Below are positions 2 through 9,304 of a stretch of DNA of 25,112 nt, piece by piece. Where the stretch lies: the IMG/VR virus record IMGVR_UViG_3300032893_001950; one strand, given 5' to 3'. Under the pieces are notes generated by a model, which saw nothing but the letters and a program-made list of their open reading frames with translations, made no database searches and was not told the origin of the DNA. This stretch comes from a virus. Within the stretch, counting starts at the first letter, position 1; each line of letters begins with the position of its first letter. Both the position numbers and the translations under genes were made by a program.

Positions 2-433
2 GAGCAGGTCAAGTATAACAAGGCGACTGGCACCATCAGCTTCAACGTCCTGGCAAAAACTAACGTCCTCCACGACCCGACTGCGCCTAGCAACCTCACC
101 TGCATCATGCACGAATTGGCTCACGAGCTAGTGGTCGAGCACGACGAGAAGTTCATCGAGGCAATGGAGAACATCGCGGGCAAAGTGGCCCACTGGCTGC
201 TCAAGAATGCCAGCAAAGTGCTTGGCACGGATCACGGATCGGCATCGACCGTGCAGCACGTCCCAGGCACGCCGCCGACCGGTGCCACCGTGGAGATCAA
301 GTGCACCGAGCCGGGCTGCACCCGTACCAGAATGGTCAAGCCGCAGGACGTGTTCCAGGTCAAGCGGTGTACCCAGTGCCAGTTGGACCACCAGAAGAAG
401 CGCGCCGCCGAGCGGCGCCAAGGAAGGGCATAA
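2..433 (+). CDS. hypothetical protein with C-terminal Zn ribbon (IKCTEPGC...KRCTQCQ); 5' partial at window edge. The reading frame is open from nt 2; the first in-window ATG is at 107.
   Basis: Frame open from window start to TAA at 431-433. C-x4-C-x17-C-x2-C motif shared with paralogs at 2873, 3131 and 5829. Stop overlaps the next start (TAATG). Confidence 0.55.
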   Translation, partial: EQVKYNKATGTISFNVLAKTNVLHDPTAPSNLTCIMHELAHELVVEHDEKFIEAMENIAGKVAHWLLKNASKVLGTDHGSASTVQHVPGTPPTGATVEIKCTEPGCTRTRMVKPQDVFQVKRCTQCQLDHQKKRAAERRQGRA

Positions 434-750
434 TGAAAACCAAGGTCTACACACTCGACCTCGATGGCATCATCAGACACCTGCTGAAGAGCACGTCCAG
501 GGAGCGCGTTCCGACCAGAATGCTCCTCAGGAACCGCATCAGGCGCAAGCTCAAGGAAGTCCACGAGATGACGCCCGCCCAGGGTCGTATCTACGACCGC
601 GTCCGAGCGTGTGTCGCAGCCGACAAGAGGGGCATGGACCTCTGTTCGTTCCTGGCAGAAGATGGACGCTCCGCCAACATTATGTTCCACCGTGAATGGC
701 TGCGGTGGAACATGGTCAAGGGGCAAAGGTTTGTCCTACCCGAGTACTAG
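433..750 (+). CDS. hypothetical protein (MKTKVYTLDL...)
   Basis: ATG overlapping the upstream stop (taATGa). AGGAAGG Shine-Dalgarno 6-12 nt upstream. GC-rich codon usage consistent with neighbours. The track ORF 301..750 begins inside the previous gene. Confidence 0.6.
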   Translation: MKTKVYTLDLDGIIRHLLKSTSRERVPTRMLLRNRIRRKLKEVHEMTPAQGRIYDRVRACVAADKRGMDLCSFLAEDGRSANIMFHREWLRWNMVKGQRFVLPEY

Positions 751-759
751 GAGGTCGGC

Positions 760-1056
760 ATGAGGAGACTGTGGTGGGTAGGGACTCTGGCCCTGGCCAG
801 CTGTGCCAAGGACCGTGACTCCTGGGTCGGGTGTGGGGTGATCGCCATCGCTGCCTTGGTCTGTACCCGTGGACTGTTAGGCAACCTCCGCAGCATGTTC
901 AAGGGACCCGGCTACTTCATCTGGGCCATGATCAAGCTATATGTGCTGCTGGCCTTCATCGCTTCAATCTTCATCATATCAGAGGCCACCTGCGATGTTG
1001 GCCTCACGACACTTTGCCCAGACCGTACGTCGAAGCGCCATGGCCACGGGAAGTGA
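760..1056 (+). CDS. small membrane protein (two predicted TM helices)
   Basis: Strong SD (TAGGAGGT) 6 nt upstream of ATG 760. Hydrophobic segments VIAIAALVCTRGLLG and LYVLLAFIASIFII. Confidence 0.6.
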   Translation: MRRLWWVGTLALASCAKDRDSWVGCGVIAIAALVCTRGLLGNLRSMFKGPGYFIWAMIKLYVLLAFIASIFIISEATCDVGLTTLCPDRTSKRHGHGK

Positions 1057-1342
1057 TGTCATACTCCTGTCGTATAATCCAATCCCACATCAATGGCATA
1101 TTTGTGACAATCCCTATTGTTACGGGTGTCAGTTCTGCGATGGTGGCTTGAGCGCTTGCATAGTATGTGGTGGATTGGAGGGCAGCCTACTATTGTTTTG
1201 TCCAGGGGTCAGGTTGGATCCAGATACTTTGGACGCAATTTATCAAGACCACATCGTGGATATTAACTACCACAGGATGCACAATGGAATCGATGGCCCA
1301 ACTCCACGTGCTGTAATTAATACCAAGTATTGGAGAAAGTGA
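1040..1342 (+). CDS. Cys-rich hypothetical protein (CDNPYCYGCQFCDGG...CIVCGG); start uncertain
   Basis: ORF in the 941..1342 frame; first ATG after the previous gene's end is at 1040. TGA overlaps the ligase ATG (tgATG). The AT-richer local composition makes the call weaker. Confidence 0.35.
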   Translation: MATGSDVILLSYNPIPHQWHICDNPYCYGCQFCDGGLSACIVCGGLEGSLLLFCPGVRLDPDTLDAIYQDHIVDINYHRMHNGIDGPTPRAVINTKYWRK

Positions 1343-7927: not shown

Positions 7928-8297
7928 GGGCCCGAAAAGGTTTCGACGTGGGACCTGAACGTAGTAGTGCGAGCCTAGGCGGTTACGGGCCTAGTCAAAT
8001 CCGTGGCAAACCAACAAACGCCAACGACAACGTTGACGTCGGCTTCCCCGCGCTCCGCGCGGCCTAAGCCACTCCAGGGTGAGACCGCCTCAATACACCC
8101 TGGGGCCAATAAAGAGGCTGTAACGCGGTGATGTTGTCCTGCTGCGCCGCGCCAAAGTAGTTGTAGGAAGACACGGGCTAGGTACCGAGCGGAGAGTTCC
8201 AACTCCAAACCGGTGCCGAAGAAAGAAATTGGAACTACGCTCGTAGTGCTGCTACCGGATGGACTTACGGACCCCGGTTCGATTCCGGGCGGGTCCA
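7928..8297 (+). ncRNA. ssrA: tmRNA (ssrA), one-piece; tag reading frame 8020..8067 encodes (A)NDNVDVGFPALRAA, stop TAA
   Basis: 5' end GGGCCCG-AAAA-GGTTTCGACGTGGG matches the tmRNA 5' consensus (GGGGCUG...GGAUUCGACGGG). 3' end GGAC-CCCGG-TTCGATT-CCGGG-CGGGTCC-A matches the T-arm plus acceptor. The acceptor pairs 7928-7934 with 8290-8296 and includes a G3:U70 wobble (Ala identity element). Resume codon GCC. The tag begins ANDN and ends AA, like proteobacterial tags. A hairpin CCAGGGTG...CACCCTGG follows the stop. Confidence 0.8.
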
Positions 8298-8314
8298 TTA
8301 TTTTGGAGTAAAAT

Positions 8315-8575
8315 GTGGCCAGGCTTGGCGACATAGTAGTAGACACGCTCGACGACACCCTCCCTGTCAGCATTGACAAGGATATGATTCGCGGCATCCA
8401 GAAGGCAACATACTTCTGTAGTGTGGCACAAAGTCCTGAGGAGGCAGCGACTCGTGCCTTCGTCGGGAATTGCTCTACTATCTATTTCATAGGGGGCAGT
8501 CGTGGTAATCGCAGGTATGGGGCGGTTTGGTGGAACGGGGACAAGAGGCGGCAACGGAAACTAGACTGGAAGTAG
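8315..8575 (+). CDS. hypothetical protein (GTG start)
   Basis: GTG 8315 with GGAG 9 nt upstream. 86-aa ORF in a lower-GC region. Weak call. Confidence 0.35.
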   Translation: MARLGDIVVDTLDDTLPVSIDKDMIRGIQKATYFCSVAQSPEEAATRAFVGNCSTIYFIGGSRGNRRYGAVWWNGDKRRQRKLDWK

Positions 8576-8593
8576 TAGGATTATTGGTACTGA

Positions 8594-9304
8594 GTGGACG
8601 CCCCCAGGATTCCAGCTAGCCCAGACGCGAGTTTCCGTTGTGAGCACTATGCGTGCACACTCCGGGGCTCAATCTGCTGCCAGCGACAGACCCAACTCCT
8701 CATCAAGTCGATGATTACCCGGGAGAAGGTTCACCCGGCACCGTTTAAGTATTGTGCCAGTGGTGAATGTCTCCAGGGCAAAGATATTATGGCTGCCATC
8801 GGGAGTGCTGCCCCGCCCGCTCCACTCCTGCGTTTCTCTAGCGGTGGCGTCGTCCGCAACGACGGGAAGACCAAGATCCAAAAGCGGCCCAAGGTGGTCC
8901 AGATAGATCATATGGAATTACTCGCGACCACGCCGCCGCCTATAGAGCTACAACGACCCATACAAAAGGTGGCACCCGTGGCCGACACTAGCACCGAGTT
9001 CGATGGAGTCGCTCCGCACCCCAAGGACACTCGCAAGCCGTGCCCTCGGAACTGTGGACGCATGCTCCGCCGTGACAACACCCGGGGCATCTGCTCCAAG
9101 TGTGCGCTGAAGGAGCGTCCCAAGAAGGGCGGCGCCGCCATCGTCAAGCCCAAGAAGAAGGTCGCTCCTCCCAAGCCTGCGTGGGGCCAACAGGAGCACG
9201 ACTACAAGGGCATCCTCCTTGACCTGCGCATGAAGCGCGACGCACTCAAGCACGAGCTTAATAATGTGGAGAGTGCTATCGCAGCCATGGAGAAGTTGGC
9301 CTAG
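8594..9304 (+). CDS. hypothetical protein with internal Zn ribbon (CPRNCGRMLRRDNTRGICSKC), Lys/Pro-rich basic segment and C-terminal coiled coil; start uncertain (GTG 8594 or ATG 8711)
   Basis: Long ORF. C-x3-C-x11-C-x2-C followed by KERPKKGGAAIVKPKKKVAPPKPAW, the same ribbon-plus-basic-tail architecture as the family. Confidence 0.55.
   Translation: MDAPRIPASPDASFRCEHYACTLRGSICCQRQTQLLIKSMITREKVHPAPFKYCASGECLQGKDIMAAIGSAAPPAPLLRFSSGGVVRNDGKTKIQKRPKVVQIDHMELLATTPPPIELQRPIQKVAPVADTSTEFDGVAPHPKDTRKPCPRNCGRMLRRDNTRGICSKCALKERPKKGGAAIVKPKKKVAPPKPAWGQQEHDYKGILLDLRMKRDALKHELNNVESAIAAMEKLA

Follow-up and report, generated by a model that had tools for sequence, protein, structure and literature searches.

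A predicted treble-clef-like finger with a basic helix in proteins of a large uncultured phage

Finger-bearing proteins of the window

The stretch of DNA described here, IMG/VR record IMGVR_UViG_3300032893_001950 (25,112 nucleotides, referred to below as the window), represents the first 25 kb of the 103-kb metagenomic contig k141_1884565 (ENA ERZ27256510). All genes of the window lie on the + strand, and three of the encoded proteins, designated A, C and D, share a short putative zinc-binding module, the finger, which is the subject of this work. The three copies were counted over positions 1-33.4 kb of the contig. Comparison of the window with deposited phage genomes by megablast gave no nucleotide match. 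Its source is a large uncultured phage, as judged from the gene content: an ATP-dependent DNA ligase, a protein resembling the major vault protein (MVP), ribonucleotide reductase, RecA, a primase-helicase, tRNA-Pro and a transfer-messenger RNA (tmRNA).

Protein A (2-433, +) is truncated by the contig end, and only the C-terminal 143 aa of what is a larger protein remain. Its translation contains the zincin motif HELAHELVVEH (110-142), which conforms to HExxHxxxxxH, and the finger detected by the family profile (287-379), directly followed by a predicted basic helix of 17 residues (380-430). Protein C (3131-3778, +; 215 aa) is a standalone protein of the subfamily 'KYPxxxxG...TSD/AEL', in which an N-terminal helical region, a K/P-rich linker upstream of the finger (3476-3556) and the KYPHAIPGTF sequence motif (3608-3640) are followed by the finger at the extreme C-terminus (3668-3760). 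Protein D (5829-6146, +; 105 aa), recognized by the same profile, is also standalone and carries the finger (5931-6023; ligands C40, C45, C62 and H65) followed by a basic Lys/Ala/Arg/Ser tail (6024-6143) with a predicted helix and then an Ala/Lys/Ser stretch.

The original prediction, made from the window alone, had grouped five open reading frames (ORFs) into one zinc-ribbon family. All five were present where it had placed them, and a regular-expression scan of six frames detected C-x4-C...C-x2-[C/H] in four of them and a different spacing in the fifth. The module common to A, C and D reads [VI]xIxC-x4-C-x3-R-x5-QDxFQVKxC-x2-[C/H], with the ligand spacing C-x4-C-x16-C-x2-[C/H] and hence 16 residues between ligands 2 and 3 in all three. 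In BLASTP comparisons A and D were 54 % identical over 28 aa (E 5e-9), and C matched D with an E value of 6e-6. A family hidden Markov model (HMM, profile A6) was built from 73 family modules and run against 2,903 six-frame ORFs of the window and the fetched loci; A scored 79.8, C 49.9 (E 2.9e-14) and D 72.5 bits. An ORF was counted as a family member if the profile matched its entire module and four ligands were present, the second and third being separated by exactly 16 residues. The near-identical core KPQD(V/K)FQVK(R/Y)C noticed earlier in A and D is real and turned out to be the signature of the family.

Protein B (2873-3058, +; 61 aa) carries C-x4-C-x19-C-x2-H at 2939-3037. Only its first zinc knuckle aligned to the family (HMM 8.1 bits, E 0.35; hhalign probability 24 %), the R, QD and FQVK of the family are missing, and ligands 2 and 3 are separated by 19 residues instead of 16. 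No homologues of B were found in phage genomes or fetched loci; it is possibly a degenerate relative, but a doubtful one. Protein E (8789-9304, +; 171 aa as called) has the motif C-x3-C-x11-C-x2-C (9041-9103) and starts, according to the public gene caller, at 8789 and not at 8594, by which an N-terminal Cys cluster is lost. E was rejected as a family member (hhalign probability 0.06 %, 11 residues between ligands 2 and 3), and it matched nothing in Pfam, PHROG, NCBIfam or phage genomes. Its basic K/P stretch (9110-9184) follows the unrelated Cys motif and precedes a C-terminal helical segment. The small ORF at 6206-6376, thought earlier to add another zinc module, was likewise discarded: it was not called as a gene, overlaps tRNA-Pro by 10 nt and reached only 0.4 bits with the profile. 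The paralogous family of zinc modules is real, with three members in the window, A, C and D, recovered at 50-80 bits; of the remaining two ribbons, neither B with its 8.1 bits nor E, unrelated by hhalign, was recovered in this way.

Chance recurrence of Cys/His motifs with no real family behind it has next to no probability as a general explanation. It holds for two of the five ORFs, E being unrelated and B doubtful, and CxxC pairs are also frequent in other parts of the window. For A, C and D, however, it is refuted by the pairwise E values (5e-9 and 6e-6) and the HMM scores, to which the 226 relatives with the same non-cysteine signature and the confident structure models, both described below, may be added.

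Module identity between the copies of the window was 47 % for A/D, 32 % for C/D and 26 % for A/C. Homologues in other phages were closer (74, 66 and 47 %), the first two values referring to A with P0009 and D with P0050 (P numbers denote proteins from the profile search and L numbers the fetched loci). Each copy also falls into its own subfamily: that of A with protease fusions, that of D with VEE[ILV]DxxIY upstream of the finger and that of C with KYPxxxxG upstream. Homologues of C were found by profile search (P0029, P0057) and by BLASTP (loci L012 and L013), whereas the closest relatives of D are in L016 and L020, with 49 % identity reaching upstream of the finger. Multiple copies on one contig were also seen in L009, L015, L018 and L025. 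Because each copy is nearer to homologues in other phages than to its neighbours, A, C and D are judged to be old paralogues and not recent tandem duplicates, and the earlier idea of tandem diversification had to be abandoned.

The finger family, its predicted fold and its tail

When 1.84 billion cluster representatives were searched exhaustively with the profile, 226 proteins were recovered at E<=1e-3, and member statistics were derived from the best 150 of these 226. In this set the median length was 146 aa and the signature was [VI]xIxC-x(2 or 4)-C-x3-R-x[IV]xxQDxFQV[KR]xC-x2-[HC]. Ligands 2 and 3 were 16 residues apart in 140 of 143 members, and the fourth ligand was His in 79 and Cys in 64 of the 143. 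Word-indexed protein searches with D, with four modules or with the 73 modules returned only D itself and two small proteins because the domain is short; it was the exhaustive profile search that recovered the family. Among 50,697 deposited phage genomes a single one, that of the cultured Bacillus phage vB_BpsS-140, contained the family (gp44, found by tblastn of the finger). A scan of IMG/VR with D alone gave no match, and further loci, 2 in IMG/VR and 10 in JGI metagenomes, were obtained through the subfamily alignment.

No PHROG and no NCBIfam was found to cover the family, no PDB chain matched it even at E<=10, and the source annotations of its members read only 'hypothetical protein'. All contexts examined were phage-like or mobile-element-like, most of them with phage replication or structural genes, which bears out the earlier view of the proteins as virus-encoded. 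By these searches the finger family appears to be unnamed, phage-restricted and absent from curated libraries.

One member, P0016 (147 aa), is encoded at 8001-8444 of locus L008 on contig k141_4484618 (61.8 kb) from the same sample, ERZ27256510. This contig, which also carries rIIB-like, MT-A70 and UvrD-helicase genes, may stem from the same phage genome or from that of a relative. On two high-GC contigs (L021, 4677-5141; L027, 5001-5768) the finger gene follows a DUF3631 gene, and in L021 it precedes a serine-recombinase-like gene, judged as such by eye without a domain search. These two contexts suggest that the family is also present in integrative elements or prophages.

Structures were predicted with AlphaFold2 using the family as the alignment. 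The model of D had a mean predicted local distance difference test score (pLDDT) of 86, with values above 93 between residues 31 and 90. In it the knuckle with C40 and C45 lies between two strands (36-39 and 48-51), and the helix 63-96 begins one residue after C62, with C62 and H65 at its N-terminus. The isolated module was modelled with a pLDDT of 94.6, and in both models the first two ligands lie in a loop between two beta-strands. The predicted fold is a treble-clef-like finger in which the last two ligands open a long helix, an arrangement other than the zinc ribbon of the original prediction, which would have two hairpins.

The tails following the finger contain on average 36 % K/R and carry a net charge of +7.2 in their first 30 residues (150 members). 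K/R occur in 47-66 % of members at post-finger positions 2, 5, 6, 8-10, 12-14, 16 and 17, and a non-basic stripe with helical periodicity runs through positions 3-4, 7, 11, 15 and 18. Beyond approximately 17 residues the tail becomes a variable Lys/Ala-rich sequence. Tails of at most six residues were found in 4 of 147 members, C among them, and in 42 of the 147 a 20-aa segment with eight or more K/R precedes the finger. The tail of D (6024-6143; 30 % K/R, 35 % A, no acidic residues) is in frame and represents a family-wide trait, which disposes of a frame artefact. Of the basic tails formerly ascribed to three ORFs, that of D stands, as does the 17-residue basic helix of A; the five-residue tail of C and the stretch of E, which is unrelated, do not. 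The description of these tails as low-complexity and histone-H1-like could not be maintained either, since there is no H1 globular domain, the proximal 17 or so residues are conserved by position and the helix is modelled with a pLDDT above 90. The term 'conserved basic helix' appears to fit them better.

The original prediction had favoured virus-encoded nucleoid proteins, and in composition (K, A, some P/S, few acidic residues) the distal tail of D and many tails of the family do resemble the C-terminal domain of H1, Hc1 and AlgP. The family tails differ from these in being anchored to a zinc finger, in the conservation of their first 17 or so residues and in the absence of a regular KPAA-type repeat. 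No H1 winged-helix, Hc1 or HU-type domain was detected with Pfam in the window proteins or in the 150 members, on which ground membership in an H1/Hc1-like group was rejected. That the finger proteins are abundant, sequence-independent nucleoid or chromatin proteins compacting phage or host DNA is considered improbable. The very basic Ala/Lys-rich tails, the basic windows upstream of the finger and the presence of several copies per genome, in the window as in the four loci listed above, would agree with such a role. It is opposed not only by the missing domains but also by the proximal tail, which is predicted as a conserved ordered helix and not a repeat array, by C and its close relatives, which have no tail, and by the fusion of the module to enzymes and its position beside regulators, which fit targeting or regulation.

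Enzyme fusions, sigma-like neighbours and the proposed function

Protein A matched Pfam WLM with an E value of 2.5e-4 and 21.6 bits (gathering score 26), and relatives with the same architecture also remained below this gathering score, at 17-25 bits. The C-terminus of P0006 (546 aa) aligned to it with 38 % identity (E 2e-25), and a 564-aa protein of L018 matched as well. Full-length homologues of A (540-564 aa) are composed of HATPase_c (GHKL), a WLM-like zincin and the finger, by which A is recognized as the likely end of a GHKL-ATPase/WLM-type metalloprotease fusion. The protease-fusion loci L010 and L018 also share a nearby DNA ligase. Bacterial SprT ends in a zinc ribbon, and Spartan possesses a zinc-binding domain for DNA. 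With the SprT/WLM/Spartan zincins A shares HExxHxxxxxH and a C-terminal, putatively zinc-binding basic module; its finger, however, differs from the SprT ribbon (no Pfam match), and its homologues, unlike these zincins, add an N-terminal GHKL ATPase. A second kind of fusion is P0003, a superfamily 2 (SF2) helicase with eight tandem fingers. PADLOC gave no match among the scanned finger-family, protease-fusion or sigma-like proteins; of P0003 only the SF2 helicase domain was recognized, by generic helicase-type models.

Standalone members of the family lie in phage early or regulatory clusters. The neighbouring gene encodes a protein matching Sigma70_r2 in L009 (32.6 bits), Sigma70_r4 in L011/L014 (27.8 bits) and Sigma70_r2 together with a zinc ribbon in L015 (25 bits, gathering score 24). 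In Bacillus phage vB_BpsS-140 the gene downstream of gp44, gp45, is annotated as sigma, and in L017 a weak region-4-like helix-turn-helix is found next to the finger gene.

In the window, the gene immediately upstream of D encodes a Cys-rich protein of 407 aa (4531-5754, +). A region-2-like segment with a first ribbon (4900-5055) and a region-4-like helix-turn-helix (5560-5646) were assigned to it by transitive similarity. No direct match to Pfam, Sigma70_r2/r4 included, and no homologue in phage genomes was found. A 393-aa protein of L018 is a full-length homologue (E 2e-49) and its likely orthologue. This L018 protein matched the Sigma70_r2-positive neighbour of L015 (E 1e-7) and the region-4-like helix-turn-helix of gp45 (E 1e-4); compared directly with L015, the window protein gave an E value of 5.9e-4. 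These transitive matches via L018 to L015 and gp45 make the Cys-rich protein a probable, though divergent, sigma-70-like factor into which zinc ribbons are inserted. A CxxC...CxxC ribbon after the region-2-like segment was observed in four sigma-like proteins (window 4531-5754; L018, 7588-8769; L015, 6119-6514; L002, 4180-4968), only some of which reach the Pfam sigma thresholds, and this group may constitute an unrecognised sigma subfamily.

The recurrent sigma-like adjacency could also mean that the finger binds protein and not DNA, with RNA polymerase or the sigma-like factor encoded next to it as its docking partner, in the manner of DksA/TraR or an anti-sigma factor. A C-x2-C subset of the family resembles DksA/TraR (PF01258) in spacing and has a 'C..CQ' at the helix start. 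The PHROG 'DksA-like zinc-finger protein' was matched weakly by 4 of 150 members (best E 2.4e-5) and Pfam zf-dskA_traR by 4 of 73 modules (E>=0.067). A relation to DksA/TraR was nevertheless rejected, as hhalign against E. coli DksA gave a probability of 0.8 %, and the DksA-type N-terminal coiled coil is absent from the family. Known zinc-binding anti-sigma domains have a helical HxxxCxxC motif, which the family lacks. Binding to nucleic acid accords better with the very high positive charge and with the fusions to helicase and protease, and docking on protein alone is regarded as quite unlikely.

The closest known relative of the family, as far as profile comparison indicates, is the CapR-like finger of Streptococcus phage SW5 gp4. 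Aligned with the family profile over 41 columns, the first repeat of gp4 gave an hhalign probability of 92.9 % (E 3.8e-7), a value subject to selection bias since gp4 was picked through its similarity to the query. The repeat has the spacing C-x4-C-x16-C-x2-C, as in the family, and gp4 itself matched the CapR domain (PF21817) with an E value of 6e-5 and 23.6 bits, just under the gathering score of 24.2. SW5 gp4 (L003, 1503-2435) contains three finger repeats and a Vsr/DUF5889-like C-terminus; its gene, annotated as hypothetical, is flanked by the terminase genes, the small one and the split large one, and the protein looks like a homing endonuclease of the free-standing type.

In the PLE satellite of Vibrio cholerae, CapR, a DNA-binding domain domesticated from a homing endonuclease, binds DNA in a sequence-specific manner and represses a phage operon (PMC8096241). 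Electrophoretic mobility shift assays with Cys-to-Ser mutants showed that its four cysteines are needed for operator binding (PMC8096241). CapR and SW5 gp4 resemble the family in being four-ligand fingers in phage proteins. The spacing of CapR, however, is described as CxxC-(24-26)-CxC (PMC8096241), unlike the 16-residue gap of the family, and the R...QDxFQVK signature and the basic helix are found in the family only. None of 150 full-length members matched PF21817 or PF14311 at E<=0.01, none matched a Pfam nuclease domain, and the 73 modules at E<=10 gave 60 Pfam families, with PF21817 absent from the 25 that were matched most often. The family is accordingly not assigned to the CapR domain; it is a new family, though its class of domain is known. 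Only an architectural analogy, with no sequence or significant structural similarity, can be drawn to the GATA-type fingers of eukaryotes and to the engineered Zif-bZIP chimera.

Taken together, the enzyme fusions, the sigma-like adjacency and the remote similarity to a CapR-type finger point more towards a targeting or regulatory DNA-binding module than towards a nucleoid role. It is proposed, with slightly better than even confidence, that nucleic acid, probably DNA, is the ligand of a phage-specific treble-clef finger with a basic helix, which would serve both to target enzymes and to form standalone factors likely to act in transcription control with neighbouring sigma-like proteins. A, C and D would each contribute one finger of about 31 residues from a phage-restricted family. 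In the predicted module a C-x2/4-C knuckle is followed by 16 residues with invariant R, D, F, Q and V and by C-x2-C/H opening the helix, which in most members would run on as a basic segment of about 17 residues and then as a variable Lys/Ala-rich tail. The finger would provide a fixed docking surface, while the basic helix would lie along the DNA backbone or in a groove. On the GHKL-ATPase/protease and the SF2 helicase the finger would act as a targeting domain, and C and D, standalone proteins in early or regulatory gene clusters, would act by themselves. A part for the standalone members in phage transcription control and not in bulk chromatin is suggested because they recur beside sigma-like or helix-turn-helix genes, D being next to 4531-5754. 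As for the finger itself, we infer that it would bind both zinc and DNA; of the DNA- or RNA-binding module originally predicted, nucleic-acid binding is retained as the most plausible activity and DNA is favoured.

Several observations weigh against this proposal. Protein C ends five residues after its finger and has no basic helix. The Pfam threshold, for CapR as for any other family, was reached by no member's finger, whether the 150 full-length proteins or the isolated modules were searched, and zinc was not part of the AlphaFold2 models. Sigma-like adjacency was seen only in 5-6 of approximately 16 lineages, a small and non-random sample. In the window the link to sigma is one of transitive similarity, and against the bona fide sigma of L009 the Cys-rich protein gave an hhalign probability of 0.6 %. 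Finally, the present evidence does not tell DNA, RNA and protein ligands apart.

An RNA- or ribosome-binding module acting on translation would suit a phage that carries tRNA and tmRNA genes, and both tRNA-Pro and tmRNA lie less than 2 kb from D. Ribosomal proteins often combine a zinc finger with a basic extension, and the Pfam Spt4/RpoE2 zinc finger was matched below threshold by 12 of 73 modules (best E 0.0023). Significant similarity to ribosomal or RNA-binding families was not found, however; most contexts of the family are without RNA genes, and the protease, helicase and sigma associations favour DNA transactions, so that a role in translation is given only a small probability.

The proposal of a DNA-targeting finger can be extended further. 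D, and perhaps C, might be the DNA-binding partners of a new ribbon-bearing sigma-like class, here taken to include 4531-5754, gp45 of vB_BpsS-140 and the L015 and L018 proteins, with which they would jointly form a phage-specific system of promoter recognition for middle or late genes, the finger having also been recruited to direct the GHKL-ATPase/protease and the helicase to DNA. This fuller scheme is rather unlikely.

The module is widespread, with several copies per genome and no fewer than 226 sequence clusters, and is confidently modelled; it belongs to the unannotated small proteins in which large uncultured phages abound. It offers access to the way in which such phages bring enzymes (GHKL-ATPase/WLM protease, helicase) to nucleic acid and, through the sigma-like neighbours, to a possible control by phages of their own transcription. 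It also bears on how DNA-binding fingers of the homing-endonuclease type are reused in evolution, with CapR as a precedent. Should the finger prove site-specific on DNA, it would represent a new DNA-binding scaffold of compact size; otherwise it would be an ordinary new domain family.

Other features of the window

A scan for promoters and terminators gave signals at or below shuffle expectation. Directly downstream of D lies the gene for tRNA-Pro (6367-6440, +; anticodon TGG), and a complete tmRNA gene is found at 7928-8300 (+; Rfam RF00023, 135.8 bits) with the predicted tag peptide ANDNVDVGFPALRAA. Phage-encoded tmRNAs are on record in huge phages (PMC7162821). Between a CreA-like gene (6767-7189) and the tmRNA there is a stretch of approximately 740 bp (7190-7927) without a called gene, which had no match in Rfam even at E<=1.

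The large subunit of ribonucleotide reductase (14510-17794, +) contains an intein with a LAGLIDADG homing-endonuclease domain and has a C-terminal Cys cluster, CPNC...CATCADCGGSFC. The adenylosuccinate synthase gene (18140-19546) adjoins a gene for an 81-aa protein (19561-19806, +) with a precomputed Pfam match to PF11195 ('Tad2-like'), by which this protein is possibly a relative of anti-Thoeris sponges. Two neighbouring proteins of 308 and about 403-417 aa, with no family assignment, are encoded at 19975-22187 (+); they contain long Pro/Ala runs with 8-10 consecutive prolines, and the local GC content rises to 64-69 %.

The MVP-like gene (9724-12285, +; 853 aa) matched Pfam MVP_shoulder and, weakly, Vault_3. 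Its only matches among phage genomes were in the huge phages LR756500, LR756501 and LR756503 (462-735 kb), with whose genes it is 40-45 % identical.

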